Shown piece by piece: positions 2,206-38,058 of a DNA stretch of 64,000 nucleotides (position 1 is the stretch's first letter; each line of letters begins with the position of its first letter). Below the pieces are notes generated by a model that was not told the DNA's origin, made no database searches, and worked only from the letters and a program-made list of their open reading frames with translations. The stretch comes from Escherichia coli (GTDB lineage: Bacteria > Pseudomonadota > Gammaproteobacteria > Enterobacterales > Enterobacteriaceae). Both the position numbers and the translations under genes were made by a program. The stretch lies in assembly GCF_044324785.1 (NCBI RefSeq), contig NZ_CP172128.1; one strand, given 5' to 3'.

Positions 2206-2240
2206 AAGACATCTCCGTTTTCGGGTATGCCTTACTGTTG

Positions 2241-2279
2241 ATCCGAATCGTTTCGGATAGCAACCGAAACGATTCGGAT
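2241..2279. promoter_or_regulatory. two operator-like palindromes in rafR-rafA intergenic region
   Basis: ATCCGAATCGTTTCGGAT (2241-2258) and CCGAAACGATTCGG (2263-2279), imperfect palindromes of LacI-family operator type just upstream of rafA start. Confidence 0.5.
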
Positions 2280-2298
2280 TTGTGAGCGGGATTAAAAA

Positions 2299-3309: not shown

Positions 3310-3643
3310 ATTTTCTCCTGCGGATAACTGAACAGCCCTGTCCCTGATGCGGGTGATCCGGGCAACAAACCTGACAGAGACGCCTGCATAAGTGGTCGCG
3401 CTGTACCAGTATGAGCCTCCATCATCCTGATTTGTGTATTAACTTTCAATACCGGAGGACGATTTGATTACCGGTTGTTAGCAGGAGTGCGAATATTAGA
3501 CCGACGGTGGAGATCTAAGACTCAGTGAGCATAGCGATACACTATATTACTGTAATTAAGCCAGTAAACTTCCTGTTCACTGGCTTAAACGCTAATGATG
3601 TATGCAGTTGAACAAGCTTTTAAACTAATGATTAATTGATATA

Positions 3644-4980: not shown

Positions 4981-5242
4981 CTGCTGATAATTTAAGTCTG
5001 GCACTAATGATTTTTAGCAATTTTGCGGGTGGGGATGATTTTTTATCCGGAGCAAACCCAATACTTTTCAGATAACAGAGAAGAGCGGCAAAACCAAACC
5101 GGCTGGCAGGTTTACGGTGAACATTGATAATTGCCAGATCCTGTTCACTGAAATACGTCATTCGAGTCAGTGTTAACTCATCGTCTGGTAATGCCAGTAA
5201 TGATTCTTTTTCCGACTGCGAAAGAATCTGCCTCCTTGCCAT
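4981..5242 (-). pseudogene. tnpA: Tn21/Tn3-family transposase TnpA, N-terminal ~87 codons only (truncated by IS2-like element)
   Basis: translation MARRQILSQSEKESLLALPDDEL... matches the conserved N-terminus of Tn21-subfamily TnpA; ORF runs into the IS right end at 4980. Confidence 0.6.
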
Positions 5243-5408
5243 ATAGCCTTCCTTGTAAATTATTTAGTGCGTTATTTTTGATTAAAAAGTTATTGTATAA
5301 GGGTATACCCTGATGCAATAGACAAAACGTGACAGCACTCCAATAATGACATAACCTATATGCGATAGAATAAATGCAATAATCTAAACGCGATAGCGTG
5401 GTAGAAAA
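5243..5408. promoter_or_regulatory. putative res site / divergent promoter region between tnpA and resolvase
   Basis: AT-rich 166-bp divergent intergenic region with repeated GCGATAG motifs; position equivalent to res in Tn3-type modules. Confidence 0.3.
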
Positions 5409-6050
5409 ATGTTCATCAGAGCTTATTTAAGGGCATCGACAGAAGATCAGTTCGCCGATCGGGCAAAAGAGATGCTGGAGCAGTTCGTTCAGGAGCGGGG
5501 GCATAAAATCGCCAGCTACTACCGGGAGAACATCAGCGGCACAAAACTAGACCGCCCGGAACTGGGACGCTTACTGATGGACAGTCATCGCAATGATATC
5601 TTGCTGGTCGAGCAGATAGACCGCCTGACCCGTCTTAGCAACAGTGACTGGATAACGCTGAAAAAGCAGATAGAACAACACGAGTTGCGGATTGTCAGTC
5701 TTGATGTGCCCACATCATGGCAGGCTCTGTCAGATAAAGATCCTTCGCAAGCGGACCCGATCACCCGCACAGTAATAACCGCAATAAATAATATGCTTAT
5801 CGACCTGATGGCTGCAATGTCGCATAAAGACTGGCTGAGTCGTCGTCAACGACAAAAACAGGGAATTGAACGTGCCCATACTTTAGGTAAGTATCGGGGC
5901 AAACAGGCAGATCGGGAACGACATCAGAAAGTAATGTACTACCGGCAGATCAAGAAACTGAGCATCCGTGAAACGGCAGAGGTGACAGGCTATAGTACTT
6001 CCCAAGTTTGTCGCATTCAGGCGCTCTATAAAGAGGTTAAACCTGATTAA
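5409..6050 (+). CDS. serine recombinase (resolvase/invertase family)
   Basis: 213 aa; N-terminal catalytic motif YLRASTEDQ with Ser10; C-terminal HTH region; divergent from tnpA fragment. Confidence 0.7.
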   Translation: MFIRAYLRASTEDQFADRAKEMLEQFVQERGHKIASYYRENISGTKLDRPELGRLLMDSHRNDILLVEQIDRLTRLSNSDWITLKKQIEQHELRIVSLDVPTSWQALSDKDPSQADPITRTVITAINNMLIDLMAAMSHKDWLSRRQRQKQGIERAHTLGKYRGKQADRERHQKVMYYRQIKKLSIRETAEVTGYSTSQVCRIQALYKEVKPD

Positions 6051-9846: not shown

Positions 9847-10437
9847 ATGTCTCGAATTTTTGCCTATTGTCGGGTTTCCACTCTGGAACAGACGACCGAA
9901 AATCAACGTCGGGAAATCGAAAGCGCGGGTTTTAACGTCAGACCCCAACGAATAATCGAAGAACAAATTAGTGGATCAGTAGCAGCCAGTGAACGTCCAG
10001 GTTTTAACCGGTTGCTTGATCGTCTGGAAAGTGGCGATGTATTGATAGTCACAAAACTGGATCGCCTCGGTCGTAATGCAATGGATATCAGGAAAACAGT
10101 GGAGCAACTGACCGAATCTGGCATCAGGGTACATTGCCTGGCATTAGGTGGTGTTGATCTGACCAGTCCGGCAGGAAAAATGACAATGCAAGTGATTTCA
10201 GCGGTCGCTGAATTTGAACGAGATCTTTTACTTGAACGAACTTATTCAGGGATAGCAAGAGCACGGGATGCAGGAAAACGTTTTGGTCGCCCACCGGTAT
10301 TAAATGAAGAACAAAAACAGAAGGTACTCGAACACATTAAGTCTGGGGGAAGTATAAGTGCTATTGCCAGGGAATTCCGAACCACACGGCAAACAATTCT
10401 GAGAGTTAGAGCGAAACAGCAAACTGTTACTGTATAG
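9847..10437 (+). CDS. tnpR: serine resolvase TnpR
   Basis: 196 aa; catalytic N-terminus [11 protein letters not shown]; C-terminal HTH; Tn3-family resolvase architecture. Confidence 0.8.
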
Positions 10438-10483
10438 AAAATAGTCTTAGCGTGGGATATTTTCCGTTTTCCAAGCGGACCCC

Positions 10484-16048: not shown

Positions 16049-16307
16049 CCGATTTAACTACACAGCAACATCTAGTAAAAATTGTCCATGATTATGCCTG
16101 CCCTCAAAAGGGTCATGGACAGTCCATCAAAGGTTCAAATGGATTACATCTGCATTCAATACCCAGATTACTTCCGCTTTGCTAAATGGATAGAACGGTT
16201 GGCGTAGGGTATTGTTGATGGTGTAATTAAAGTTCCTAAAGATCATTAAAATATCAGATCGGAAATTTAGGCGGTTCCGGCGTAGAACCCAGAACCCCTT
16301 ATCCGAA

Positions 16308-21407: not shown

Positions 21408-22628
21408 TTAGCGGTGTTGACTTGCCCGACTGAGAATCGCATACGCGATACATGCCACCAGAATGGAGTCAACTGAAGGGATCGTCGTCAGGGTGAATAA
21501 GCCTTTTACGGTCATAAAGCCAACCGCTGTGCCTGTGATCCATGCAGCGAATGTCAGTACTTTAACCTGTGACTCCTGAGTTAACACCGACTCTTGATAG
21601 CCATTACGGCGATAAAGGAAAAAGTCAGCGATATAAATTCCGGCAACTGGGGGAGTCGCGATACCCAGGAACAGCAGAAACGGAATAAACCACGCCATAA
21701 TATCCATACTGCCTACGATGGCGGAAAGGATACCCAGCGCAACGGTAATCTGCCATTTGGGAAAGCGGCTAAGCAGTGTGGAAACTACCAACGTCCCCTG
21801 GAACATATTGCCCGCATTACCGGTGACGCAGGCGAATATCAGCAACAGTGCTGCAGGCATAACCGCACCGAATACTGCCATAGCATTCAGTAAAGAGCCC
21901 TGGCCGCTAATGGCACTCGGCGTTGCACCCGCCCAGTATAGCAGAGGGTAGGCAACCAGAAACGTCATACCTGCGGCAATCAGAGCATGTTTTCGGTTAT
22001 GTACAAAACTACCGAAGTCGGGAAGTGTAGCAACCAGAACAATAATAGTGCCAACAACGGTGGAAACGGCGACACCTGTACTCATCTCCGCTATCGCTGC
22101 TGGCGCTGATACTTCGGTATGGGTTGCCACATAGAGTATATAACACAGCACCAGTGCGATAACCGGCACGGCGACCTGGGCAACTTTGCCCAGAATGGAA
22201 AAACCAAAGGCCGTAGAGGCGACAAAAATGACACAACCAGCTGCCACTAACAGTGCCAGTGGCGCTTCAATCCCATTCTGCGCCAGTAAGTCATGCACCG
22301 AATGACCAAACATATTAGCGGTAACGGCAATCCAGCCGAACAGACTTATAGCCATCAAAATATTAATGGCGATGGCCCCTTTTTCGCCAAATGAATATTT
22401 CACAATACCGTATGTTGGCAGGCGGGCTTTTTCTCCCACACTAATGGTGATGGCTGAAAGTAAGGTCAGAATGACGCCGCCTAATAGTACGACGCTAATT
22501 AAACTACCACTGGAAAGTTGATTGCCGAGGCTTGAGGATGACAACAGCACAGGTGTGACGGCAATACCCAGCAAAATCATGGTAATACGCAATCCTGATG
22601 CCGTATTCATATTATCTTCTTTACGCAT
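21408..22628 (-). CDS. NCS1-type (cytosine/purine/allantoin-like) permease, putative
   Basis: 406 aa polytopic membrane protein with a transporter-like profile. Confidence 0.5.
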   Translation of the reverse strand: MRKEDNMNTASGLRITMILLGIAVTPVLLSSSSLGNQLSSGSLISVVLLGGVILTLLSAITISVGEKARLPTYGIVKYSFGEKGAIAINILMAISLFGWIAVTANMFGHSVHDLLAQNGIEAPLALLVAAGCVIFVASTAFGFSILGKVAQVAVPVIALVLCYILYVATHTEVSAPAAIAEMSTGVAVSTVVGTIIVLVATLPDFGSFVHNRKHALIAAGMTFLVAYPLLYWAGATPSAISGQGSLLNAMAVFGAVMPAALLLIFACVTGNAGNMFQGTLVVSTLLSRFPKWQITVALGILSAIVGSMDIMAWFIPFLLFLGIATPPVAGIYIADFFLYRRNGYQESVLTQESQVKVLTFAAWITGTAVGFMTVKGLFTLTTIPSVDSILVACIAYAILSRASQHR

Positions 22629-22653
22629 AATATGTTTCCTTTATAAATGCGCG

Positions 22654-23043
22654 TTACATCGTGTGAAAATTCCCGGTGTATTTGCGCCAGCCCCCCAGTG
22701 CTGTAATCTCCTTCTGGCCTTCAGTCAGCCAGCTTTCTGCCAGTACGCCCAGTACTTCGCTACCATCGGCAAGTTTGATTTTTCCAATGGTCAGGCCTTC
22801 GGGTTCGTTCATTAACAGTTCGGCAAAACTGGCCAGAGGCAGTTGCCAGATTTCTACGTCTACGTGTGCTCCTCCTTCATTCACGCGGATCATTCCGGGA
22901 TGACGATCATTAATACTCCATAACCGGTAATGGGCGTCAGTTCGGTCTTCACGGACAAAAATACCGCCCGCTTTTTGCATATTTGGGTTGAGTTCCAGAC
23001 CGCGCATCAGCGTTCCGTTAACGGCTAAAAGTGTTGTAGTCAT
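22654..23043 (-). CDS. AIG2/gamma-glutamylcyclotransferase-like protein
   Basis: 129 aa with GGCT-like fold signature at the N-terminus; family assignment tentative. Confidence 0.4.
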   Translation of the reverse strand: MTTTLLAVNGTLMRGLELNPNMQKAGGIFVREDRTDAHYRLWSINDRHPGMIRVNEGGAHVDVEIWQLPLASFAELLMNEPEGLTIGKIKLADGSEVLGVLAESWLTEGQKEITALGGWRKYTGNFHTM

Positions 23044-23059
23044 TGTGTTCTCCAGAGAA

Positions 23060-24016
23060 TTAAAGGGTTATCCATGTTCCGCTCTGATGTGCCAGGGCTG
23101 CTTTTATGGTTTGCGGTGAAGTAATCAGTCCGCTGGCCTGTTTGCCTTGTTGCTGGCTGGCATTGATGAAATCAATAATGGCTTCCACTTTGGGTTGCAT
23201 ACTGCCGACACCAAACTGACCTTCCTGCAACAGCGTTTGAGCTTCGTAGACGCTGATAGCGTCGAGCCATTGTTGTTGTGGTGTACCAAAGTTAATCGCC
23301 ACTTTTTCTACACCGGTGGGGATCACCAGCAGATCAGCGCCTAACTGACTGGCGAGCAATGCGGAGGCCAGGTCTTTATCGATCACGGCTTCCACACCTT
23401 TCAGTTGTTGCCCGTCTCGCACCACAGGTATACCGCCGCCGCCGCAGGCTATAACCAGATATCCCTGGCGCACAAGGTGAGCGATGGTGTGGTGCTCAAT
23501 AATTTCCAGTGGCGCAGGAGAGGGAACTGTACGCCGCCAACCACGCCCGGCGTCCTCCATCAGCGTCCAGCCGAGTTGTTGTTGGCATTGTTGTGCTGTT
23601 TCTTCATCAAGAAACGCGCCAATCGGTTTACTGGGGCTGGCGAAAGCATCGTCATATGGGCTGACTCGCGTTTGTGTCACCAGGGTAATTACCGGTTTGT
23701 TTATGCCACGGCGAGCCAATTCGTTATGCAGCGCTTTCTGGAACATGTATCCAATGGCGCCTTGGGTATCACCCACGGCGTAATCCAGAGGAACCGGAGA
23801 AACTTCGTTACTGGCAAGTTCAGAGCGGCGCAGAATAAAGCCTACCTGCGGGCCATTACCGTGGGTTAGCACCAGGTCCCATCCGGCTTCAACCATATCA
23901 ACGATATGCTGCACGCTTTCCATTACTGCAACATATTGATCGGGAATACTATTGCGTTTATCGTCCTGAATGAGCGCATTGCCGCCAACCGCGACGACAG
24001 CCAGTGGCTTAACCAT
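23060..24016 (-). CDS. carbamate kinase-like protein (YahI/YbcF-type)
   Basis: AVVAVGGNAL ... THGNGPQVG amino-acid-kinase motifs; start taken at MVKPLAVVAVGG rather than the upstream ORF-track start. Confidence 0.75.
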   Translation of the reverse strand: MVKPLAVVAVGGNALIQDDKRNSIPDQYVAVMESVQHIVDMVEAGWDLVLTHGNGPQVGFILRRSELASNEVSPVPLDYAVGDTQGAIGYMFQKALHNELARRGINKPVITLVTQTRVSPYDDAFASPSKPIGAFLDEETAQQCQQQLGWTLMEDAGRGWRRTVPSPAPLEIIEHHTIAHLVRQGYLVIACGGGGIPVVRDGQQLKGVEAVIDKDLASALLASQLGADLLVIPTGVEKVAINFGTPQQQWLDAISVYEAQTLLQEGQFGVGSMQPKVEAIIDFINASQQQGKQASGLITSPQTIKAALAHQSGTWITL

Positions 24017-25433
24017 GATGGTTCTCCTTTGCGACGATCTCCGCCAGTTCACGTACAGCAGCGACAAAACAGGCCATCGGTGCAGTGGTGATCCCGGCAC
24101 CAATTTGTCCGACTCCCGCTTGTTTGTGGGCGATACCCGTATTGATGACCGGTAAAATGCCACGATCGGTCACTTTACACGCATCAATACCTGCTGCGGT
24201 GGGGGCAAAATTGAGGGCTGGAAGTGTAAATGCGGGGTTACCGCCGAGGGTGATTGCCTGCATCCGACGGCTGTTATTGGTGGCATCGGCAGGGGTGCCT
24301 CCCACAAATTTAACAATCGCCGGAGATGACGCCATCGCGAAGCCACCCACACCTGCGGTTTCAGTAATTGCGCTATCACCCAGGTCAGCAGCGGCGTCGT
24401 CAACGCCAAATCCGGGGAAGAACAGACCTTCAACTGCATTGGCAGGAGCCTGGAACCAGCGATCGCCAGTACCGGAAAGCCGAATACCAAAATTCACCCC
24501 GTTACGCGCCATCACCGTAACCATTGAACTGAACGGTACATTGGCGGCGGCATCCATCATTGCTTTACAGGCAGCCATCGACAAATTGAGGAAGAAGTGA
24601 TCGTTACCTGTGATAAATGCCACGACGCGCTGGATATGTTCCTGTGGAAGAGAGCAGGCCAGCAATGCCGGGAGCAGGCGCTTAATCAGCAAACCGGTAG
24701 CGGCAGCATTGCGGTTATGAACTTCATCCCCCATATGCAGCGCCTGCGCCATTAATGGCTTGAGTTCCAGCTCGCCGTGTTGTGCGATTGCTGCTTTCAT
24801 GGCCGGCGCCAGTTCATCACGCATCCAGGCCAGACGATTGAGAACTTCATCGTTATTGGCACCAAAACGGAGAACCTTACCCAGACCCTCATTGAAATTG
24901 CTAAAAGTACGATGGCCGTTGGTTTTGTTTTCCACCACCCATAATGGCATAGACGGGCTGATAATGCCTGCCATTGGTCCAACCGCGTGATAATGATGAC
25001 AAGGAGCAAGGTCGATTTCGCCTGCGTTTATCTGGTTTTCTGCGTCTTTCTGGCTTGTAGCCCAGCCTTCGTACAGCATGGCACCAATAATCGCCCCTTT
25101 TACCGGACCACACATATCTTCCCAGGCAATCGGTGGACCAGAGTGTAAAATGCGTTTTTGTTCAGCCATTTCGGGGATGGCTTCTTTAGCGAGCATGACA
25201 TCCACCAACACGGGCTGTGCTTCGAGATAACGTGTCATGGCGATTTGGTTGGCACTTTCTACCAGTGGATGGCGTAGTAATGACGCCAGAACCAAACCGG
25301 TGTCAATATCACCTTGTGCTGGCGGCTGCCAGTTGAGGGATATAGCATGCCCTCCTGCATGTTGAATATTGTCAGCAAAACTGTGTAGTCCCGCGTTCAC
25401 GACCTTCAAAGGCTGATTAAATAAGGTATTCAT
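24009..25433 (-). CDS. DUF1116 protein (YahG/YlbE-like)
   Basis: ~474 aa, conserved partner of FdrA-like and DUF2877 proteins; start taken at MNTLFNQPL. Confidence 0.65.
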   Translation of the reverse strand: MNTLFNQPLKVVNAGLHSFADNIQHAGGHAISLNWQPPAQGDIDTGLVLASLLRHPLVESANQIAMTRYLEAQPVLVDVMLAKEAIPEMAEQKRILHSGPPIAWEDMCGPVKGAIIGAMLYEGWATSQKDAENQINAGEIDLAPCHHYHAVGPMAGIISPSMPLWVVENKTNGHRTFSNFNEGLGKVLRFGANNDEVLNRLAWMRDELAPAMKAAIAQHGELELKPLMAQALHMGDEVHNRNAAATGLLIKRLLPALLACSLPQEHIQRVVAFITGNDHFFLNLSMAACKAMMDAAANVPFSSMVTVMARNGVNFGIRLSGTGDRWFQAPANAVEGLFFPGFGVDDAAADLGDSAITETAGVGGFAMASSPAIVKFVGGTPADATNNSRRMQAITLGGNPAFTLPALNFAPTAAGIDACKVTDRGILPVINTGIAHKQAGVGQIGAGITTAPMACFVAAVRELAEIVAKENHHG

Positions 25434-26989
25434 GCATTTAGCTCCTTTTTCTGCAACTGAGTCTGTGCAACGGTGCTGGCCCATAGCGCCGCCTGTGCAT
25501 TGCTGTTGGCAATGATGACGCCTGCATTTTGTAGTGAGCTTATCTGCTGACTGCGTATTTGCGGATCAGCTTCTGTTCCGCAAACGTGGGCAATCAGCAA
25601 CGGTGCATTATTCATGTCGATGTGTGAAAGTTGGTCCAGTAATTCGCTGACAGGCGTAGCGGAGGTGCCATAACCAAGTACAAGGTCGAATAACACAACG
25701 GCAGTATGTGAGTCGTTGAGTTCGTTGAGCAGACGTTGATTGCGCAGAGTCGGGTCGATCATTGGATGCGGTTTGCCACGGGTGAAATCATCGTCCCCCA
25801 TATCAATCAGTGTATGATCTTCACTTTGCCAGATATTTGCCAGAGCACGATTACCCGCAACTGGCGTATTGGAGGCGGCATGGAATCCCTTTTGTTGGCA
25901 GATAAGCTGAGCTTCGTAACAGAAGGTTCCTCCGGCGAAAACACCGCGTATCGCCTGGCGATGGACTGGCAGACTTTGGCAGGCGTTTTGTAACATTGTG
26001 AGATCGTCGCAGGAAACCTCGTTCTCGACAGCCGGAAGTGGCTGATCATTCAGTAACGCCACAGCGATGTCGGCGGCGCTGGCAAGTGTGGTGGCGGCAG
26101 TGATATTGGGACGTGCCAGATCATGCGGATTCGCCCCGAGGAAATTCACCACCACGGGTTTTCCACAAGCCTCGGCGCGCTCCAGAATAGTCCGGGCAAC
26201 GATCGGTGAAGGCGGTTTTGAAATAAGAACAATCACGTGAGTTTCATCGTCTTGTGCCAGCGCATCTAAAGCAAAGAGCATTGATATTCCACCAATCTCT
26301 TCACTGAGATCATGTCCGCCTGTTCCCAACGCCTGAGAAATACCCGCTCCGAGCTGGTCGATTCGGCAAGTCACTTCCTGTAGCCCGGTGCCTGACGCGC
26401 CAATAACACCAATTGCTCCGCGTTTCACCACATTAGCGAAGCCTAACGGAATGCCGTTAACAATGGCGGTTCCACAGTCAGGTCCCATTACGATACGCTG
26501 ACGTTCTCGGGCAAGCGTTTTGATGTATTTTTCCTGCCCGATACTGACGTTATCGCTGAACATCATCACGTTCATTCCGAGGTTTAACGCTTTAATTGCT
26601 TCGGCGGCGGCGTAGTCTCCCGGTACAGAAATGAGTGCCAGGTTGGCTTCGGGTTCAGCTTCCAGTGCCATTTCCAGGCTGACCTTTTCCGGTGATTTAA
26701 TGCCACAATCCGTTTCATCATCGGGTTTGCTGGTCAGACGTTGCTGGGCCAGTAGCAGTGCTTCATTGCAAATATCTTCTTCACCCATGACTGCAATCAC
26801 TAAATCATTGGGACTGGCGTTGATTTCGTTACCCAGACCCGCATCGCGCAATTGCTCGAGATTATTGGGTGTTCCCATGACGACCGAGGCCTGTTGAATA
26901 CCGGGCAACTTGCTGATTTGCGCGGAAATCTGCATCAGAGAAACTGAGTCCTGATAAAGATTACTGAAAACTTTATATTTAACTTTCAT
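25430..26989 (-). CDS. FdrA-like protein (YahF-type, succinyl-CoA-synthetase-alpha-like fold)
   Basis: ~519 aa, CoA-ligase/NAD-binding Rossmann-like N-domain; start taken at MKVKYKVF. Confidence 0.65.
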   Translation of the reverse strand: MKVKYKVFSNLYQDSVSLMQISAQISKLPGIQQASVVMGTPNNLEQLRDAGLGNEINASPNDLVIAVMGEEDICNEALLLAQQRLTSKPDDETDCGIKSPEKVSLEMALEAEPEANLALISVPGDYAAAEAIKALNLGMNVMMFSDNVSIGQEKYIKTLARERQRIVMGPDCGTAIVNGIPLGFANVVKRGAIGVIGASGTGLQEVTCRIDQLGAGISQALGTGGHDLSEEIGGISMLFALDALAQDDETHVIVLISKPPSPIVARTILERAEACGKPVVVNFLGANPHDLARPNITAATTLASAADIAVALLNDQPLPAVENEVSCDDLTMLQNACQSLPVHRQAIRGVFAGGTFCYEAQLICQQKGFHAASNTPVAGNRALANIWQSEDHTLIDMGDDDFTRGKPHPMIDPTLRNQRLLNELNDSHTAVVLFDLVLGYGTSATPVSELLDQLSHIDMNNAPLLIAHVCGTEADPQIRSQQISSLQNAGVIIANSNAQAALWASTVAQTQLQKKELNA

Positions 26990-27083
26990 GCTGTTACGCC
27001 TGTTCCATTCCGCCCGATAGCAAAATTCGGGCAAAGCATCCCCGTGTAGCCCCATAAACGGGCTACGGGAGAAAAGGTTGAAA

Positions 27084-27944
27084 TCAATTCATGGTGTTCA
27101 GGGTTCGAAATCCATGCAGCATTCCTGCAAGGCAATTTACTCCTGATGTTGCGCCAAATTGCATGATCTGTTCTGTACAGGATGCGATTGTCATTGCCGA
27201 TGCGCTCCCAACCAGTTGTGCGAGTAACCGGCAAATCGGTTCTGAAAAATGTCCCTGAAGCGCACGTTGCAGATAATGACGACTTATATCCGTGGTGTTG
27301 TGTGCATGTTGTTCAATTGCCTTCTGCAACCTGTATTGATGATTGGCAAGTGGTGCAGGGAGTTGCCATAACCAGAGGGCTGCCAGATAGCCCAGCAAAT
27401 AGTCATCTCCATCGGGCGTTAAGCCTTTACCAAAGCCGATCAGTTGGGGTACCTGGCGTTCCAGCGCATCTGGATGTTCCATAATATCTAATCCCTGGTG
27501 CGTGAGACTATCCGGCAGGTGCAATGTGCTTTGAACGTTATGCTCCAGACAAAATAAAAGCCGTTGCGATGCTATCGTGGGGTAGTGCTGGAAAACCAAA
27601 GGCAATGCCTCAAGAGTCAGCATTCCCCCCACAAATGGCGACTGCCAGAGCGTTGCGTTATCGAGCGCCACACAAAATCGAGGTGTCCGCAGTAAGCCTG
27701 GGGTTAACTGAATGGGATCTGAATGGGCAATCTCTCTTCGCCAGTCCCAACATTCAGGTAGCCAGACTCTGGCAGCATCAGGGAGATTCAGATACGTTTG
27801 CGCACACAACAGAGTGATGAATGTTCCCGCGTCTGAATACAGATTTACCGCATGTTTAAAAGCGCTATGTAGACGTAAATCTTGCGTTTCATTCTGCGGG
27901 AAAAGATATCCTAACGACGATGCACAAAGCGTAACCTGTACCAT
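27084..27944 (-). CDS. DUF2877 protein (YahE/YlbF-like)
   Basis: 286 aa; conserved third member of the FdrA/DUF1116/DUF2877 trio. Confidence 0.6.
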   Translation of the reverse strand: MVQVTLCASSLGYLFPQNETQDLRLHSAFKHAVNLYSDAGTFITLLCAQTYLNLPDAARVWLPECWDWRREIAHSDPIQLTPGLLRTPRFCVALDNATLWQSPFVGGMLTLEALPLVFQHYPTIASQRLLFCLEHNVQSTLHLPDSLTHQGLDIMEHPDALERQVPQLIGFGKGLTPDGDDYLLGYLAALWLWQLPAPLANHQYRLQKAIEQHAHNTTDISRHYLQRALQGHFSEPICRLLAQLVGSASAMTIASCTEQIMQFGATSGVNCLAGMLHGFRTLNTMN

Positions 27945-27949
27945 CGGCG

Positions 27950-28618
27950 TTAGCCTTCCAGACCTGCAATAATGGCTTTGGAATCAGTAACCCAACCGAA
28001 AATGGCACCTTGTGCTTTGATCATCTCAAGGGCGTATTTCTGGAATTCCGGGAAATAGGAGCCAACGCAATCTTCCGGTATGATGCATTCATAGCCACGG
28101 TCATTTGCTTCACGCACGGTGGTGGTTACGCAAACTTCGGTAGTCACGCCACAAACAATAAGTGTCTTGATACCACGCTTTTGCAAAATCAGATGTAAGT
28201 CGGTTTGATAAAAAGCGCCTTTACCGGGTTTATCAATCACAGGTTCGCCTGTCACTGGATACAGTTCAGGAATGATGTCATGACCTGCCTCACCCCTGAC
28301 CAGAATGCGTCCCATCGGTCCTGGTTCACCAATAAAGGTTTTTCCGCCGCGCGTCAGTTTGGCTGATGGGCAGTCGCTTAAGTCTTCACGATGGCCTTCA
28401 CGGGTATGAATAACCATAATTCCTTTTTGACGTGCGGCTACCAGAACTTCTTTACATGGTGCGATAGCCGTGCGAACCAGTGAAACATCATTACCCAATG
28501 CTTCTCCAAACCCTCCTGCTTCGACAAAATCACGTTGCATGTCTATCATGATCAGTGCCGTTGTGCACGGATCAAAGGGTAATTCAAAGGGTTGAGCCTG
28601 AAAAATGGATATCGTCAT
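27950..28618 (-). CDS. isochorismatase-family cysteine hydrolase
   Basis: ALIMIDMQRDF ... catalytic-Cys region IVCGVTTEVCV typical of isochorismatase/N-carbamoylsarcosine amidase family; start at MTISIF with GGAG RBS. Confidence 0.75.
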   Translation of the reverse strand: MTISIFQAQPFELPFDPCTTALIMIDMQRDFVEAGGFGEALGNDVSLVRTAIAPCKEVLVAARQKGIMVIHTREGHREDLSDCPSAKLTRGGKTFIGEPGPMGRILVRGEAGHDIIPELYPVTGEPVIDKPGKGAFYQTDLHLILQKRGIKTLIVCGVTTEVCVTTTVREANDRGYECIIPEDCVGSYFPEFQKYALEMIKAQGAIFGWVTDSKAIIAGLEG

Positions 28619-28890
28619 GACAAATCTCCAGTATATATTGTTTACTGGTGACGAGTATTCAATATAAAGGTGACCCACAACAGAAAAAAAAGTTGTTTTA
28701 CAGGAGCGAATATTTTTGAGGTGTCTAAATGTTGTTATGAAAAATGTGATTTATATCAATCTATGACATTCATAAACAACTTTTTTCAAATGTTTATTTG
28801 TTTAATATTAAAAAAATTGTCGATATATTGTGATATTAATCATCCTATTTGGCAGGGATAGTGCTGATTTTTAACAAATACCCCTTACAT

Positions 28891-29076: not shown

Positions 29077-30560
29077 TCATACGGGAGATGGCGGTTCCCA
29101 GCGTTTATCCTGCTCCGGCGGAGGCAGTGATGCGTCATCGTTGCTGTTCGCCGCGATATAATCGCGGTAGTAGCGTTCACTTCCTTCCCGGTGATGATCC
29201 ACATCCGGTCGTGTAATCCTGTAGTCTTCGTGACCGGTACGGCCTGTCACATTATGCCAGGCAACCATTTCAGCAAAGACCTGGTTAAATTGTTTGTCGT
29301 TTCCTTCTGGTTCAAAGCCCATTCTGGGATCACGCTCAAACAATACAGGTGCAATCAAATCCAGTTTATCTGCCAGCGCATTGCGGTCATGGTGATTACG
29401 GAAAACAACCCTGTCACCATAATCCGTACAGACAAACTCTCCCGTCCGACGGTCACGGAAACGAACACTCCCGTTCTTCTGCAAACGGGCCTCGAGATCA
29501 CCGGTATTACCGTATACCGGCGTTCCGCCCGGTTCACAAAGCACGACACAGCGGTCTGTTGTTGTTGTGCGTGACTTGTCTTTACGGCGATCGCGATAAT
29601 CCCAGCCTCTCAACTGCGATACAGCAGCCCTGTCTCCCTGAGCAGCCTGAATTTCGACCCACTGACGGTAAGAGGGTGGATACCACTTCCCGTCAGCAAT
29701 AAGTTTCTGTCGCTCATCCCTGATGTCTTCTTTCAGCCTGATCAACGCCTGCATTCGCTGAACTTCTGCAATGTGATAATGCAGCTTACGTAATGCCGGA
29801 TCATCGTACTGCGCACGAATGTGTGACTTCCGCAGACGGCATGCCTGATGAATTTCCCGACAACGTTCCCCATTACGCAGATCTGGTTTACGCCATTGTT
29901 CACGCCATGCCAGATAGCGGGCACGCAGGTCAGCACGGGCCTCAGCTCTGGCTTCACGTCGCTGCCGGCGCAGCATTGGGTCACGTTTACTGCTGACCCC
30001 GTACCTGTCACTGACAGCCAGCTCCGGGTTATAGCGACTTTCAGGTTGCACCCTGTCAAACAAATCTGCTGGGGCACTCACAAAAGGTCCGGCCTGTGGC
30101 TCTGCACGCCCCAGAGTCAGATCAGGATGAATGCTGCTGGCCTTCACCGGCGTTTGCTCATGATTAAAGGCATCAACGACAACAAGCCCGTGATGTTGTT
30201 TCTGTAGCATCAGTCCCTGTTGTGCAAACAGCTCATGACAACGCTGCCAGGTAAACTCACCCTGTGTGATCATTTCTTCAATCTGAGGGCTACAATGGCT
30301 GATGCTGTATCCCCACAGACTTTCTTTATCAGAAAACAGTTCGCGTTTGATAGCCCCCTGCGGCCCCGTGCCTGTACGCATACGGTGCCATTCTTTATCG
30401 GTCGCAGGACAGCTCTCCATACGACGACCACGGAAGCGTTCTGTTGGCGTAACCTGGCGGAAAATATCTGTTGGTACAGGCTGCCAGCCACCATCGAGTT
30501 GATTCACATTGTCGAGCGTCAGCAGTGACCATACGCTGTCAGCACGAACGGGAGTCTGGT
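29077..30560 (-). pseudogene. NikB-like MOBP relaxase, C-terminal ~490 codons only
   Basis: N-terminal part of the translation (..TPVRADSVWSL..QPVPTDIF..) aligns with the C-terminal region of the nikB at the window end; relaxase catalytic domain absent. Confidence 0.55.
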
Positions 30561-30613
30561 TATGATATTTTTCGGATCCCGGTGAAAAAAGAGAGAAACA
30601 TGCAGATACCATG

Positions 30614-30732
30614 CATATCCATATGTTTGGCATCTGCATATGACAGGCATACGCATATCTCACACATCTGCATATCTATAACATATACATATGTATCACA
30701 TCTGCATATACTAAACATATATAAAAGCCGTC
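30614..30732. repeat. seven tandem 17-bp direct repeats, core CAT(C/A)NNCATAT
   Basis: core motif starts at 30614, 30631, 30648, 30665, 30682, 30699, 30716: exact 17-bp period; directly upstream of vagC. Confidence 0.7.
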
Positions 30733-30748
30733 TTGCCAGGAGGAAGAC

Positions 30749-30979
30749 ATGAGAACCGTATCTATTTTCAAAAATGGCAATAACCGCGCGATCCGTCTGC
30801 CCCGCGATCTGGATTTTGAGGGGGTGAGTGAGCTGGAGATTGTACGGGAAGGGGACAGAATCATTCTGCGTCCCCTCCGCCCGAGCTGGAGCTCATTCCT
30901 GGAGCTAGAAAAGGCCGATCCGGGCTTTATGACGGAACGCGAGGACGTTGTCTGCGACGAAGGACGATTTAACCTGTGA
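30749..30979 (+). CDS. vagC: VagC/VapB antitoxin (AbrB/SpoVT domain)
   Basis: 76 aa, MRTVSIFKNGNNRAIRLPRDL.. swapped-hairpin antitoxin; start/stop overlap with PIN toxin. Confidence 0.85.
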   Translation: MRTVSIFKNGNNRAIRLPRDLDFEGVSELEIVREGDRIILRPLRPSWSSFLELEKADPGFMTEREDVVCDEGRFNL

Positions 30980-31392
30980 ACAAGATCTATATGCTCGACA
31001 CGAACATCTGCTCGTTCATCATGCGCGAGCAGCCTGAAGCAGTGCTTAAGAATCTGGAGCAGGCGGTGCTGCGCGGTCACCGTATAGTGGTCTCGGCCAT
31101 CACCTACTCCGAGATGCGCTTCGGCGCCACCGGTCCAAAGGCATCGCCACGCCACGTGCAGCTGGTTGACGCGTTCTGCGCCCGTCTCGATGCCATCCTG
31201 CCCTGGGATCGCGCTGCGGTGGATGCAACCACGGAGGTTAAGGTGGCGCTGCGCCTCGCCGGCACGCCGATCGGTCCGAACGACACGGCGATCGCCGGGC
31301 ACGCCATCGCCACCGGGGCAATACTGGTGACGAATAATGTGAGAGAGTTTGAGCGGGTGCCTGGACTGGTACTGGAAGACTGGGCAGGATAA
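30976..31392 (+). CDS. vagD: VagD/VapC PIN-domain toxin
   Basis: 138 aa, PIN-domain acidic residues (MLDTNICSF.., ..VTNN..). Confidence 0.85.
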   Translation: MNKIYMLDTNICSFIMREQPEAVLKNLEQAVLRGHRIVVSAITYSEMRFGATGPKASPRHVQLVDAFCARLDAILPWDRAAVDATTEVKVALRLAGTPIGPNDTAIAGHAIATGAILVTNNVREFERVPGLVLEDWAG

Positions 31393-31395
31393 AGG

Positions 31396-31430
31396 AGTAA
31401 GGCCGCCCCCGACGGCCTTACCACTATTTT
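31396..31430 (+). terminator. rho-independent terminator-like hairpin after vagD
   Basis: GTAAGGCCG-CCCCCGAC-GGCCTTAC followed by T-rich tract. Confidence 0.5.
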
Positions 31431-31899
31431 GCGATGTCAGTCGTATTCATTTTCAGCGTTAAAAAAGGGCTCTATACGAATACGTGTATCAGCGTGAGTA
31501 AGTTTCGGCGGCCTGATAAATCCACTATTTCCCAGCTGGACAGCCAGTTGCCACATGGCATCACTACGGGGAATGCTACGATAATTCCTCTCTGTGAGGA
31601 AAGCGGCATAATCCTGATGCCCGAACGTCATGAGCACCTGTCTGATGAACTTGTGTGACCCACCGTCATTTTTAAGACATTGCATCAGCAGTGCCTGCTT
31701 CTGCCGGTCATCGGTTATTTTGGTGGAGAACCTTATCAGGGCTTGCTGGCTGAGAAGTGGTGCCTCAGAGAGCAGGGCTTCATCTTTTTCCCAGAGCCAG
31801 TTCAGGATACTGATACAGACTTCATCTGCAATCTTATCGCCATTCAGAATTAAACGAGTAATCCCCAGGTCAAACTGGTCATCAGCAAATAAAACAAGC

Positions 31900-33208
31900 T
31901 GAACCGCCCCGGGAATCCTGGAGACTAAACTCCCTGAGAAAGAGGTAAACAGAATGACTAAAAATACTCGTTTTTCCCCCGAAGTCCGTCAGAGGGCGAT
32001 TCGTATGGTTCTGGAAAGTCAGGGCGAATATGACTCACAGTGGGCGGCAATTTGTTCCATTGCCCCAAAGATTGGCTGTACACCGGAGACTCTGCGTGTC
32101 TGGGTACGCCAGCATGAGCGGGATACCGGAGGCGGTGATGGCGGGCTCACCACCGCTGAACGTCAGCGTCTGAAAGAGCTGGAACGTGAAAATCGTGAAC
32201 GCGCCGCAGTAACGATATCCTTCGCCAGGCTTCCGCTTATTTTGCGAAGGCGGAGTTCGACCGCCTCTGGAAAAAGTGATGCCACTGCTGGATAAGCTGC
32301 GTAAGCTGTACGGGGTCGGACGGGTATGCAGTGAACTACATATTGCCCCGTCAACGTATTACCACTGTCAGCAACAGCGACATCATCCTGATAAACGCAG
32401 TGCCCGTGCGCAGCGCGATGACTGGCTGAAGAAAGAGATACTGCGCGTATACGATGGGAATCATCAGGTATATGGTGTGCGTAAAGTCTGGCGTCAGTTG
32501 TTACGGGAAGGAATCAGGGTAGCCAGATGTACAGTGGCGCGCCTCATGGCGGTTATGGGACTTGCCGGTGTTCTCCGGGGTAAAAAGGTCCGCACTACCG
32601 TCAGCCGGAAAGCCGTTGCCGCAGGCGACCGCGTAAACCGTCAGTTTGTGGCAGAACGTCCTGACCAGTTGTGGGTGGCTGATTTTACTTACGTCAGCAC
32701 ATGGCAGGGGGTCGTCTATGTGGCGTTCATCATTGATGTGTTTGCCGGATACATCGTGGGGTGGCGGGTCTCATCGTCTATGGAAACGACATTCGTGCTG
32801 GATGCTCTGGAGCAGGCGTTATGGGCCCGTCGACCGTCCGGCACAGTCCATCACAGTGATAAAGGTTCTCAGTATGTATCGCTGGCCTACACACAGCGGC
32901 TTAAGGAAGCCGGATTACTGGCATCAACAGGAAGTACTGGTGACTCGTATGACAACGCGATGGCGGAGAGCATCAATGGCCTTTACAAAGCGGAGGTAAT
33001 ACACCGTAAGAGCTGGAAAAACCGGACAGAAGTGGAGCTGGCCACACTCACGTGGGTGGACTGGTATAACAATCGACGATTGCTGGAAAGGCTGGGCCAT
33101 ATCCCACCGGCAGAAGCAGAAAAAGCTTATTATGCTTCCATCGGAAACGATGATCTGGCAGCCTGAGTTCACAGATAAAACACTCTCCAGGAAACCCGGG
33201 GCGGTTCA
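31900..33208 (+). mobile_element. IS3-family insertion sequence (orfA 31954-32295, orfB 32276-33166)
   Basis: terminal inverted repeats TGAACCGCCCCGGGAATCCTGG / CCAGGAAACCCGGGGCGGTTCA; orfB with DDE-type transposase hallmarks; orfA/orfB overlap. Confidence 0.8.
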
Positions 33209-33556
33209 AACACCCTTTCTTCATCCATCCTGCGCGCTCCATCTGATAATGTTCTGACAGGTAAAAATCAAATTCTGTATGATTTTTGTGTTATCGATTT
33301 ATGATAATATCAGATATTTTTTCATTACTTATGATTAAAATCATATCTAATATGAATTTATGTGTATTGCTTAATTATCATATCACCTGCCCGTTTCCCG
33401 CCGCGCAGATCCGGTTTCCGGCTGAAGTGGATCCAGACCTGATTTGTTGCTGAGTATCGGTAAAAGTGCGGCTTATAAGCTATTCTGAAACATGGCAACT
33501 GAATCTGGGCTGTATAATTCCGGCAAGTGTCATCTGTATTTAAAGGACGTGTGAGT

Positions 33557-34009
33557 ATGAAATTTATGGAATGTGCTGTCCGGGATGTGATTTATGGGAC
33601 CAATGTCCGTCTTGTCAAACCGGTCAACATTTATGAATGTGAACTCGGGGACAATGTGTTTGTCGGCCCCTTCGTTGAGATACAGAAAGGCTGTGTCATT
33701 GGTAGTGGAAGTCGGATACAGTCGCACACGTTTATTTGTGAGAACGTAACACTGGGGGAGAAGTGCTTCATTGGTCATAACGTGACGTTCGCCAACGATC
33801 TGTTTCGTTCAGGAGCACCAGATCCGTCACCGGATAACTGGATCAGCATTACCCTGGGGGATTCGGTTACTGTTGGCAGTGGAGCCATTATTCTGTCTCC
33901 GTATATATGCAGCGGAGCTGTTATTGGTGCGGGTTCAGTTGTGGTAAAACCGATTGAGAACAAAGGCATTTATGCAGGAAACCCGGCAAGACTGCTCAGA
34001 ATATTATGA
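33557..34009 (+). CDS. hexapeptide-repeat (left-handed beta-helix) acetyltransferase
   Basis: repeated [LIV]G-x4 hexapeptides (IGSGSRIQ, IGHNVTFAND, VGSGAIILSP, IGAGSVVVKP). Confidence 0.65.
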   Translation: MKFMECAVRDVIYGTNVRLVKPVNIYECELGDNVFVGPFVEIQKGCVIGSGSRIQSHTFICENVTLGEKCFIGHNVTFANDLFRSGAPDPSPDNWISITLGDSVTVGSGAIILSPYICSGAVIGAGSVVVKPIENKGIYAGNPARLLRIL

Positions 34010-34013
34010 AAAA

Positions 34014-34042
34014 GAAAAGGGCCGTTACTGGCCCTTTTTATC
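34014..34042 (+). terminator. rho-independent terminator
   Basis: AAAAGGGCCGTTACTGGCCCTTTTTATC. Confidence 0.6.
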
Positions 34043-34277
34043 AGAGGTAGGTCTGTGAATACGGCAGGTGTACAGAAATCGACTGCCGGGGATCGATTTC
34101 CAGGGCCGCCCGGTATTCTGCGTCAGTGATATCACCTTTTTTCGGTAAATAACCGAGAGCATCGTTTCCCAGCCCTGACAGTATGCGTATTCTGGCGATC
34201 CGGAAATCAAACAGGCTGTCCATCATACCATGCTCCGGAAATGCGGGAGGAGTGGCCAGATAGGCAGGTTTGACCAT

Positions 34278-34405
34278 TGTCCTAAAGTGCCTTCAGGAAG
34301 AGATAATCGGGAAGCGCCTTCACTGATCGAAAGTTGATTTTCAAGAACCGTTCTGACAGCTTCGGCTTTGAACTCTTTAGAGTAACGTTGGGTTTTTCTG
34401 CTCAT
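34278..34405 (-). pseudogene. IS3-family orfA-like N-terminal remnant
   Basis: MSRKTQRYSKEFKAEAVRTVLENQLSISEGASRL.. fits the IS3-family orfA N-terminal pattern; no intact downstream transposase. Confidence 0.3.
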
Positions 34406-34763
34406 TATTAGCTCCTTCTGATGCCATTCTATTTCAGGAAGGAGTGTCCGTTAAACCCAGGCTACCTCATAGTTCATTTTCTGTTGATGCGCTGAAGATC
34501 ATTTCATTCAAAATACTGACATCTTTCATAAAGACCTCCATTTTATGTCGGGGAAAAATAAAGCACAGATAAACTATATTTTCACATTTAATTTACAAAT
34601 TGGTGGTATCAGTCACAAATAACTTACAGGTCCGGTAATATCGGTCTGTTAGTGATATTTACTGAAAATGATGGAAAGATATTGATAACGTGGTTGCCAT
34701 AACCAATGCTTCAGGGAAGCCGATATGGTTAATGTCATTACAATCGTCGCCACAGTTGCCTGT

Positions 34764-36094
34764 TAGACTGGCCCCCTGAATCTCCAGACAACCAATATCA
34801 CTTAAATAAGTGATAGTCTTAATACTAGTTTTTAGACTAGTCATTGGAGAGCAGATGATTGATGTCTTAGGACCGGAGAAACGCAGACGGCGTACTACAC
34901 AGGAAAAGATCGCTATTGTTCAGCAGAGTTTTGAACCGGGAATGACGGTCTCCCTTGTTGCCCGGCAACACGGTGTGGCAGCCAGCCAGTTATTTCTCTG
35001 GCGCAAGCAATACCAGGAGGGAAGTCTTACTGCTGTGGCCGCAGGAGAGCAGGTCGTTCCTGCCTCTGAACTTGCTGCTGCCATGAAGCAGATTAAAGAA
35101 CTCCAGCGCCTGCTCGGCAAAAAAACGATGGAAAATGAACTCCTTAAAGAAGCCGTTGAATACGGGCGTGCAAAAAAGTGGATAGCGCACGCGCCCTTAT
35201 TGCCCGGGGATGGGGAGTAAGCTTAGTCAGCCGTTGTCTCCGGGTGTCGCGTGCGCAGTTGCACGTAATTCTCAGACGAACCGATGACTGGAAAGATGGT
35301 CGCCGCAGCCGTCACTCAGATGATACGGATGTGCTTCTCCGTATACACCATGTTATCGGAGAGCTGCCCACGTATGGTTATCGTCGGGTATGGGCGCTGC
35401 TTCGCAGACAGGCCGAACTTGATGGTATGCCTGCGATCAATGCCAAACGTGTTTACCGGATCATGCGCCAGAATGCGCTGTTGCTTGAGCGAAAAACCGC
35501 TGTACCGCCATCGAAACGGGCACATACTGGCAAAGTGGCCGTGAAAGAAAGCAATCAACGATGGTGCTCTGACGGGTTCGAGTTCCGCTGTGATAACGGA
35601 GAAAAACTGCGAGTCACGTTCGCGCTGGACTGCTGTGACCGTGAGGCACTGCACTGGGCAGTCACTACGGGCGGCTTCGACAGTGAAACAGTACAGGACG
35701 TCATGCTGGGAGCGGTGGAACGCCGCTTCGGCAACGAGCTTCCGGCGTCTCCAGTAGAGTGGCTGACGGATAATGGTTCATGCTACCGGGCTAATGAAAC
35801 ACGGCAGTTTGCCCGGATGTTGGGGCTTGAACCGAAGAACACGGCGGTGCGGAGTCCGGAGAGTAACGGCATAGCAGAGAGCTTCGTGAAAACGATAAAG
35901 CGTGACTACATCAGTATCATGCCTAAACCAGACGGGTTAACGGCAGCAAAGAACCTTGCAGAGGCGTTCGAGCATTATAACGAATGGCATCCGCATAGTG
36001 CACTGGGTTATCGCTCGCCACGGGAATATCTGCGGCAGCAGGCCAGTAATGGGTTAAGTGATAACAGGTGTCTGGAAATATAGGGGCAAATCCA
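34764..36094 (+). mobile_element. IS2 copy 2
   Basis: ORFs identical to copy 1; 5-bp target duplication CCTGT on both sides. Confidence 0.9.
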
Positions 36095-36722
36095 CCTGTG
36101 TATCCGGATATTTGAAATGGATCTTCCAGAAGCGGACTCGGGTAGTATCTTCATGGTTTGGCTTTCAGCAGATCTGTGACTCTGCTATTTATTGATGAAT
36201 ATGACCTTTACAATTCCAGTTATTGTTCTGATTGCAATAATCACTTCATCACAATAATCCACCATTTTTTGTGATTATCTGGCAATAATTTTCTTTTCTG
36301 CTCCAGAGATCCGAAAACTCCTGGTTCCGGATCCGCGGATCCTTCGCTGCCGCCCGCTGGTCCGCTTTCACAGGATGTGGTGTCCCGCTCCGCTGACATG
36401 ACACTGTATGTTGTGTTTCTTCCCGTGTTCCCGAGCCAGTCATCAGCGGCAGAAAAGATCGCTTCGCTTATTCACTGATCCTGATTCACTTCCGGAAAAT
36501 CCTGAATCCGATAAAAATCGGATCATAGAAAAACAGTCATCCTGTAATTTATCATAGTTACTACATTGCAGGTTATTATTGTCATGATTACTTTTCAGGT
36601 CAGTTATTGATGGTGGTGTTAATAATAGCTGGATAACAATATTCCGTTGCCGGAGGCATGTTATAGCGTAATACTGGTGTATACTTAATGGTGTACAGAG
36701 AGTATGTAAGATGAGGTGCATT

Positions 36723-37248
<526 letters not shown>

Positions 37249-38058
37249 ATGTCAGGCTCCGTTATACACAGCCAGTCTGCAGCCATGGTACCGGCAGTGT
37301 ATTCTGCCGGACAGTCTGCACAACTTCCTGTTGCCATTGATTATCCGGCAGCTCTGGCACTCCGCCAGATGTCGATGGTTCATGATGAACTGCCGAAATA
37401 TCTGCTGGCTCCCGAGGTGAGTGCCCTGCTTCATTATGTCCCGGATCTGCGCCGCAAGATGCTGCTGGCCACTCTGTGGAACACCGGCGCGCGTATTAAT
37501 GAAGCACTAGCGCTGACGCGGGGGGATTTTTCGCTCACGCCTCCGTATCCGTTTGTGCAGCTGGCCACTCTGAAGCAGCGGACAGAAAAAGCCGCCAGGA
37601 GGGCAGGAAGGATGCCCGCCGGTCAGCAGACTCACCGTCTGGTTCCGCTCTCCGACGCCTGGTACGTCAGCCAGCTGCAGACGATGGTGGCCACACTGAA
37701 AATCCCCATGGAACGGCGTAATAAACGAACAGGCAGGACAGAGAAAGCGCGGATCTGGGAAGTGACGGACAGAACGGTCAGGACCTGGATTGGGGAGGCG
37801 GTTGCCGCCGCTGCTGCTGACGGTGTGACGTTCTCTGTTCCGGTCACACCACATACGTTCCGCCATTCCTATGCGATGCACATGCTGTATGCCGGTATAC
37901 CGCTGAAAGTTCTGCAAAGCCTGATGGGACATAAGTCCATCAGTTCAACGGAAGTCTACACGAAGGTTTTTGCGCTGGATGTGGCTGCCCGGCACCGGGT
38001 GCAGTTTGCGATGCCTGAGTCCGATGCGGTCACAATGCTGAAAAACAGACATGTATAA
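37249..38058 (+). CDS. resD: ResD tyrosine site-specific recombinase (F-plasmid D protein type)
   Basis: 269 aa; tyrosine recombinase C-terminal motifs (HTFRHSYAMHML, GHKSISSTEVYTKV); immediately downstream of ccdB as in F. Confidence 0.8.
   Translation: MSGSVIHSQSAAMVPAVYSAGQSAQLPVAIDYPAALALRQMSMVHDELPKYLLAPEVSALLHYVPDLRRKMLLATLWNTGARINEALALTRGDFSLTPPYPFVQLATLKQRTEKAARRAGRMPAGQQTHRLVPLSDAWYVSQLQTMVATLKIPMERRNKRTGRTEKARIWEVTDRTVRTWIGEAVAAAAADGVTFSVPVTPHTFRHSYAMHMLYAGIPLKVLQSLMGHKSISSTEVYTKVFALDVAARHRVQFAMPESDAVTMLKNRHV

Follow-up and report, generated by a model that had tools for sequence, protein, structure and literature searches.

The 64-kb stretch of Escherichia coli DNA analysed here (hereafter, the window) carries a vagCD toxin-antitoxin (TA) operon preceded by an array of short tandem repeats. 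The first gene, vagC (vapB; 30749-30979, + strand), is an ORF for a 76-aa antitoxin of the AbrB/SpoVT type, as judged from the Pfam PF04014 domain of its homologues and from the NCBIfam model NF040493 (TA_anti_VapB), which VagC matches with 88 bits against a cutoff of 60; its Shine-Dalgarno sequence, AGGAGG, can be read at 30738-30743 (+). The second gene, vagD (vapC; 30976-31392, +), overlaps vagC by 4 bp and encodes an intact 138-aa PIN-domain toxin, a VapC relative whose matches to the NCBIfam VapC models (E = 1e-35 and 4e-31) fall below the equivalog cutoffs. Both genes belong to a vagCD module (30561-31900, +) sharing 99.6% identity over its 1340 bp with the Klebsiella pneumoniae plasmid NZ_OM975893 (L001), and likewise with metagenome contigs; IS3-family ORFs follow from 31954. 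A 601-bp query (30400-31000) has a 100% match in the E. coli IncK2/Z plasmid NZ_CP029742 (L003), and identity to this plasmid also outlines the mosaic setting, with genes for a cytosine permease, carbamate kinase, FdrA and a cysteine hydrolase upstream (~22400-28700), and IS3- and IS91-family elements and astA (EAST1 enterotoxin) downstream (32000-38000).

On its left side the module adjoins a relic of nikB, which retains 1483 bp from the 3' end of this IncI1-type relaxase gene (29084-30566, - strand) and is 98% identical to nikB of CP088403.1 (L084; match 2185-3667, full gene 2178-4877) and devoid of approximately the first 403 codons, nikA and oriT. The nikB matches stop at 30566 and the matches to the Klebsiella vagCD module start at 30561, so that the junction (30561-30566) consists of 6 bp, TATGAT, common to both parents, which suggests illegitimate recombination at microhomology. 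Only the segment 29084-30566 of the listed 528-aa ORF (29077-30663, - strand) is nikB, the first ~32 codons being module and array DNA read from the opposite strand, and this ORF is therefore chimeric. The repeat array had been taken to mark the truncation point of nikB; the junction actually lies ~50 bp upstream of it (48 bp before the first unit) and falls within a separate conserved element of the vagCD module.

This upstream element is represented in the window only by its right arm, CGGATC followed by the A-rich tract GAAAAAAGAGAGAAA (30573-30598, +), the left arm having been lost at the nikB junction. When intact, as in about two thirds of the vagCD loci, it forms an inverted repeat that includes a pair of GATC (Dam) sites, AGATCCGG-N~13-(T-run)CGGATCT, followed by GAAAAAGAGAGAA some 25-45 bp before the first box of the array. 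The inverted repeat forms the left edge of homology between vagCD loci, and the element was found in ~90 distinct loci with differing flanks. In a MAFFT alignment of 20 diverged relatives from Klebsiella, Enterobacter, Citrobacter, Phytobacter, Pantoea, Mixta, Brenneria, Buttiauxella and other genera (alignment A2), its GATC and A-run are invariant or nearly so. The intact form (L002, 4984-5030) folds into a hairpin with an 11-bp stem (-17 kcal/mol, z = -1.9); a role as terminator was dismissed, as the hairpin has no U-run on either strand. Insulation of vagCD from read-through was considered as well, but the upstream genes run in the same direction as vagCD in 44 context clusters and diverge from it in 36 (P = 0.43), and in the absence of an orientation bias the idea has no support. 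An Rfam scan of 30400-31500 returned only two miRNA families at E = 0.56, far below the gathering scores, and thus provided no RNA-family explanation for the region.

The array itself spans 30614-30721 and comprises six full 17-bp units and one half unit. The pattern CATMNNCATAT occurs exactly at 30614, 30631, 30648, 30665, 30682 and 30699, these six copies being recovered as a single repeat family (D1) with spacings of 17, 17, 17, 17 and 17 bp; the whole window contains 8 matches, compared with an expectation of 1.05 +/- 0.96, a total not attained in any of 100 shuffles. Read in steps of 17 bp across 30614-30732, the units are catatccatatgtttgg, catctgcatatgacagg, catacgcatatctcaca, catctgcatatctataa, catatacatatgtatca, catctgcatatactaaa and catatataaaagccgtc. 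The preliminary description had counted seven tandem copies, of which the first six indeed stand in perfect 17-bp register, whereas at 30716 just half a unit is present, CATATA followed by TAAAAG, with CATATGC at this place in the relatives; it was right in placing the end of this series 17 bp before the vagC start codon, the ATG being at 30749. Tandem Repeats Finder reported period 17 but gave a higher score (101) to period 34, because CATCTGCATAT units alternate with CATAYNCATAT units.

Each unit is made of a 12-bp double box and a 5-bp spacer. The four distal units (30614-30681, +) have the double boxes CATATCCATATG, CATCTGCATATG, CATACGCATATC and CATCTGCATATC, and the promoter-proximal part (30682-30721, +) contains two more, CATATACATATG (30682-30693) and CATCTGCATATA (30699-30710), followed by the single box CATATA (30716-30721). 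One further, degenerate box, CAGATA, is located 11 bp upstream of the first unit (30603-30608, +); it reads CATAGG in most relatives, its A/T/A/G/G columns being 80-100% conserved in alignment A2. The only sigma-70-like site predicted within 30450-30850 is embedded in the array: the putative vagCD promoter (30684-30712, +) has a -35 hexamer TATACA (30684-30689), a 17-nt spacer and a -10 hexamer TATACT (30707-30712), 37 bp ahead of the vagC start codon. In 17-20 relatives, conservation of these hexamers is 88-100%, and this holds also for the 'CT' of TATACT, which occupies a spacer position of the repeat. As this conserved promoter lies inside units 5 and 6, units 5-7 cover the -35 and -10 hexamers and the probable transcription start, expected at about 30719-30721, and units 1-4 lie upstream. 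Like operators of the VapB/AbrB type, the array is thus placed directly upstream of the antitoxin gene and overlaps its predicted promoter.

To place this arrangement in the context of the family, we used a set of 80 loci from one-genome-per-species contigs, fetched with the VagC alignment. With up to one mismatch to the palindrome CATATG allowed, each locus has between 2 and 19 boxes in the 240 bp upstream of vagC, compared with ~1.2 in shuffled sequences; the window locus has 14, 13 of them inside the array. The distances between boxes peak at 6, 11, 17, 23, 28, 34, 40, 45 and 51 bp, with 142, 185, 257, 100, 112 and 187 box pairs at 6, 11, 17, 23, 28 and 34 bp, respectively, against ~0.5 expected at each distance. 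From this accumulation it follows that the unit consists of two abutting 6-bp boxes and a 5-bp spacer or, in an equivalent description, that 17-bp elements of the form CATATG-N5-CATMTG follow each other head to tail. A matrix built from 158 distinct 11-bp-spaced pairs gives the box consensus R-C-A-T-A-T-G-Y and contains almost no information in the spacer. The palindromic site R-CATATG-Y, with boxes in both orientations, is what would be expected of an operator of the VapB/AbrB type. In one locus (L038), some boxes are flipped (CAGATG) while the register is kept, which suggests symmetric recognition of the element and not simply duplication.

At the lower end of the range, a minimal form, CATATG-N4-6-CATATG, stands alone in Xenorhabdus, Photorhabdus and betaproteobacterial relatives, over or beside TTGACA...TATACT-like promoters. 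It reads GCATATGC-TAT-ACATATGT in Xenorhabdus and TTGACA-N17-overlapping GCATATGC-TGAA-ACATATGC in betaproteobacterial MAGs, and Photorhabdus has two box pairs placed around TTGACA and TATACT. One subfamily (L001 9960-10000, L006, L018, L021 and L026) has a longer leader between the array and the Shine-Dalgarno sequence, in which a further pair, GGATATGC-N5-CATATCCACA, follows the -10 hexamer; this pair, absent from the window, resembles a DnaA box in its last 8 bp (TATCCACA). The Klebsiella plasmid L001 contains two vagCD modules 4.8 kb apart (5189-5832 and 10018-10440), which encode VagC proteins with 91% identity and have the same CATATG-type boxes, so that the two antitoxins could regulate each other's operon.

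The repeats are widespread and are tightly linked to vagC. The 188 bp upstream of vagC matched 4339 plasmid records, mostly at 60-80% identity, and 2348 of these cover at least 80% of the query. The module made up of the array and vagCD is also present in many chromosomes, and arrays were found on contigs of 1-5 Mb, that is, of chromosomal size. A metagenome scan with a pattern derived from the array alone, CATATG-N5-CATCTGCATAT-N6-CAT, yielded 80 contigs. In 76 of these, a vagC homologue begins 61-171 bp downstream in the same orientation; of the remaining four, two are cut by the contig end and two (L148 and L159) are chance or low-complexity matches, so that all 76 evaluable arrays are upstream of vagC. 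The latter two were rejected as arrays, one being a simple-sequence tract and the other a single match inside a coding region. The same pattern had no match in viral contigs. Among the 148 loci with enough flanking sequence, 96 distinct upstream contexts were distinguished, which is the co-inheritance expected of a type II TA operator: vagCD is the only constant partner of the array, on plasmids and chromosomes, from Enterobacterales to betaproteobacterial MAGs. The other neighbours of vagCD vary: L001 has a HEPN nuclease gene or a 3.8-kb gene there, L002 an integrase and hypothetical genes, and the window the nikB relic.

These data bear directly on the earlier suggestion of iterons or a partition site, whose remnant would adjoin vagCD by chance. 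Regular but degenerate tandem repeats of ~17-22 bp are typical of iterons and of some centromeres, and vagCD does reside on plasmids. However, neither a rep gene, which would adjoin iterons, usually along with DnaA boxes and an AT-rich unwinding element, nor a parA/parB or parM/parR pair, which would adjoin a centromere and be inherited with it, flanks the array in the window or in L001-L003, and none is a constant neighbour elsewhere. The repeats occur in many different upstream contexts and on chromosome-sized contigs, were never seen without vagC and overlap the vagC promoter in a fixed register. We therefore consider an origin as a replication or partition site extremely unlikely.

Units 1-4 can be aligned one to one across the 20 relatives in alignment A2, which makes it possible to compare boxes and spacers position by position. 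The majority fraction averages 0.94 over the 48 box columns (1.77 bits) and 0.57 over the 20 spacer columns (0.64 bits; Mann-Whitney P = 2e-10, a value that overstates independence because the sequences are related); the contrast between adjacent columns is plain. The number of units changes in steps of 34 bp, as indicated by gaps of exactly 34 columns in L001b, L033 and L046 and by a recent 34-bp amplification in L038 (93% matches). The latter locus (2290-2460) represents an extreme allele with ~9-10 units (19 boxes), which arose by amplification of a double unit of 34 bp, alternate double boxes being inverted (CAGATGCATA). The suggestion that the array is a minisatellite is therefore borne out as far as copy number is concerned and fails for the sequence, given that a neutral minisatellite would be free of position-specific constraint and the boxes are clearly under it. 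Box number also varies with genomic setting, the medians being 4 on contigs of at least 400 kb, which are probably chromosomal, and 6 on smaller ones; when only VagC proteins with at least 80% identity are considered, the medians are 6 and 9, respectively (P about 0.01), a trend only, as the data are non-independent. Loci with the upstream CGGATC motif have a median of 13 boxes, compared with 4 in those without it.

Variation in exact 34-bp steps, seen as gaps in L001b, L033 and L046 and as amplification in L038, would also be expected if only the promoter-proximal boxes were functional, the distal units being passengers of slippage or unequal recombination in 34-bp units. Many members of the family manage with 2-5 boxes, and two operators suffice in the known VapBC promoters (PMC3378870). 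Nevertheless, the distal boxes are as conserved as the proximal ones across genera while the intervening spacers have diverged, unlike neutral repeats, and the four distal units still align one to one in Klebsiella, Enterobacter, Citrobacter, Pantoea, Mixta and Phytobacter. On balance, it seems unlikely that the distal units are mere passengers.

The most likely candidate for the protein that recognizes the boxes is VagC itself. In a search of PDB sequences, VagC retrieved 6IFM as the top match (E = 3.5e-7), followed by Rickettsia felis VapB2 (3ZVK; E = 7.5e-7). In the structure of R. felis VapBC2 on a 27-bp operator, the VapB dimer reads the pseudo-palindrome A-R-T-A-T|A-T-A-Y-T: Asn9, backed by Arg16, makes contact with the central thymines and Gln11 with the purine at +/-4, Lys19 touches the backbone, and two boxes constitute one octamer site (PMC3326315). 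Two candidate promoter sequences had been tested in that study, of which the 27-bp one, with the higher affinity, was crystallised (PMC3326315). In the HMMER alignment, N9, N11, R16 and R19 of VagC correspond to N9, Q11, R16 and K19 of the DNA-bound R. felis protein; thus, in addition to the PF04014 domain and the NF040493 match, VagC has the aligned base-contact residues expected of a DNA-binding antitoxin. The sites are alike as well, the VagC box R-C-A-T|A-T-G-Y having the same T|A centre and the same R/Y flanks at +/-4, and Asn9, Arg16 and a basic residue at position 19 are conserved in VagC. The differences are that VagC has Asn rather than Gln at position 11 and its box C/G rather than T/A at +/-3, and that the R. 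felis boxes are 10 bp long (ARTAT|ATAYT), lie 14 bp apart and were crystallised as a single pair of sites, not as a long array.

Residues 1-18 of VagC are nearly invariant in the family, and so are the boxes; covariation between protein and DNA is uninformative because the DNA-binding residues hardly vary. Three Photorhabdus loci that lack boxes (L068, L074 and L077) encode VagC with R19H, accompanied in two of them by R16C, and in L169 (1300-1960) a VagC with R16Y/R19H occurs together with a decayed array, a mutated -10 hexamer and a truncated vagD. This joint decay of the operator and the DNA-binding residues, reflecting one or two events, is suggestive only. L045, in which the boxes are kept despite the substitution N9I in VagC, counts against binding by VagC.

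A host regulator, a nucleoid protein or a second plasmid factor could in principle occupy the boxes in place of VagC, CATATG being a simple AT-rich palindrome that other proteins might recognize. Such a protein would have to account for vagCD being the sole constant genetic partner of the array across ~96 contexts and for the resemblance of the box to the site of a structurally characterised VapB relative. Moreover, the 64-kb window has no other operator-like pair apart from one chance match at 16136, and hence shows no sign of a wider VagC regulon there. Recognition by a protein other than VagC is, in our assessment, very unlikely.

An antitoxin-bound promoter-operator is of a well-known kind. 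Close parallels are vapO1/vapO2 (OS1/OS2) of the Salmonella LT2 vapBC and the Shigella/E. coli mvpAT system, which likewise pair an AbrB-type VapB with a PIN-domain VapC and in which paired short ATAT-centred boxes overlap the -10 and -35 hexamers. Enteric VapBC binds two inverted-repeat operators over these hexamers, with VapC acting as both co-repressor and de-repressor of vapBC (PMC3378870, PMC11796401), and in the Shigella system DNA-bound VapB is protected from Lon (PMC11796401). The enteric toxin co-represses within a hetero-octamer, and by analogy an equivalent role is proposed for VagD. A Shigella-type promoter on the E. coli IncF plasmid NZ_CP141865 (L168, 520-590) has four boxes, GTATATCC/ACATATCC around TTGACA and GGATATAC/ACATATCC, which are spaced by 13 bp within a pair and by 39 bp from pair to pair and presumably correspond to OS1/OS2; this vapBC lies between traI and traD. 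The pSLT vapBC2 pair was considered as a characterised vagCD homologue and set aside as irrelevant, since it is of the mvpAT type.

The differences from the enteric systems are nonetheless substantial. VagC is only distantly related to enteric VapB (E about 1e-3 to the S. sonnei chain 6SD6), its box is RCATATGY rather than NNATATCC, and the spacing within pairs is 11 bp instead of 13. Where enteric VapBC has two operators 39 bp apart, vagCD has ~7 abutting ones (13-14 boxes in ~120 bp) in a strict 17-bp register, and, unlike in the enteric case, four of the units are placed upstream of the promoter. In the open-access literature we searched, we found no description of the vagCD operator or of these repeats, and no binding, footprint or reporter data for the VapB subfamily of VagC. 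As far as that literature goes, a row of ~seven abutting operators in strict 17-bp register, with a variable copy number and with the majority of its units preceding the promoter, is undescribed for VapBC.

Long operators with many sites are known from unrelated TA modules. The ccdAB operator of plasmid F extends over 113 bp and includes eight weak, equally spaced CcdA sites, and the multivalency (avidity) of binding produces a digital, ratio-dependent switch, with the repressing complex spiralling around the DNA (PMC5389731). This makes ccdAB, another TA system with a long many-site operator, the best functional analogue for why the vagCD array could matter. The proteins are nevertheless unrelated to VagCD, with a ribbon-helix-helix (RHH) CcdA and the gyrase poison CcdB forming open alternating chains, unlike the closed octamers of VapBC, and the ccd sites are GTATAC-like and poorly conserved, whereas the vagCD boxes are CATATG-like. 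Another parallel is provided by the omega repressor arrays of the epsilon-zeta TA/par region of pSM19035, where seven to ten close-packed repeats, direct or inverted, are bound by successive omega dimers that wind around the DNA; omega is an RHH repressor encoded apart from the TA pair, binds 7-bp heptads and has no sequence or fold relation to VagC.

Taken together, the position, periodicity and conservation of the array and its linkage to vagC lead us to regard it as the probable promoter-operator of the vagCD (VapBC-family) operon, expanded to ~14 antitoxin-binding boxes. The multi-site VagC operator that had been among the three candidates from the outset, when a functional binding array was preferred, thus appears the best founded of them, with comparative sequence evidence from four sides: linkage to vagC, conserved boxes next to diverged spacers, promoter overlap and likeness to the site of a characterised relative. 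We infer binding by VagC or VagCD, the pairing of the boxes and the stoichiometry from this evidence as follows. The elementary site would be the 8-bp pseudo-palindrome R-CATATG-Y, each box accommodating one AbrB-type N-terminal dimer of VagC. As the comparison of loci shows, the putative elementary operator comprises two boxes 11 bp apart centre to centre (CATATG-N5-CATMTG), or roughly one turn of the helix, and on about the same face of it, an arrangement that would suit a single VagC4-VagD4 hetero-octamer with two DNA-binding heads. About seven such pairs follow head to tail every 17 bp (30603/30614 through 30705/30716), with the boxes abutting pairwise; since successive pairs are rotated by ~223 degrees per 17 bp, the bound complexes would wind around the DNA.

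Repression would then follow from the location of the proximal units. Because these three units cover the -35 and -10 hexamers and the likely start, bound complexes would exclude RNA polymerase and could thereby repress vagCD. The four distal units may add multivalency, with avidity making repression tighter, more switch-like and dependent on the toxin:antitoxin ratio, as in ccdAB. Boxes only 6 bp apart would require two AbrB dimers on opposite faces of the helix, and octamers at a 17-bp spacing may clash, leaving full occupancy uncertain. Since the known VapBC systems need one or two operators, the distal units could also be dispensable.

A further use of the distal units beyond added repression, which we regard as rather unlikely, would be that of a docking site on the DNA, where each plasmid copy keeps a store of several VagCD complexes and VagC is sheltered from Lon. 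Docking would couple the half-life of the antitoxin to the presence and copy number of the plasmid, so that plasmid loss would free and expose the stored antitoxin and sharpen post-segregational killing, and the number of units could be tuned by 34-bp slippage. Relevant here is the trend toward more boxes on contigs below 400 kb than on the larger, probably chromosomal ones.

The vagCD system is among the commonest addiction modules on resistance and virulence plasmids of Klebsiella, E. coli, Salmonella and Enterobacter. For annotation, the operator interpretation would explain a conspicuous repeat and remove the spurious ORFs called across the array. If the array is indeed the operator, this VapBC system would be controlled by ~seven tandem operators, in contrast to the one or two studied so far, and would provide a natural test case of how multivalency shapes a toxin:antitoxin ratio switch, a question worked out only for the unrelated ccdAB. 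The natural alleles, with 2 to 19 boxes, would constitute a graded experimental series for this purpose.
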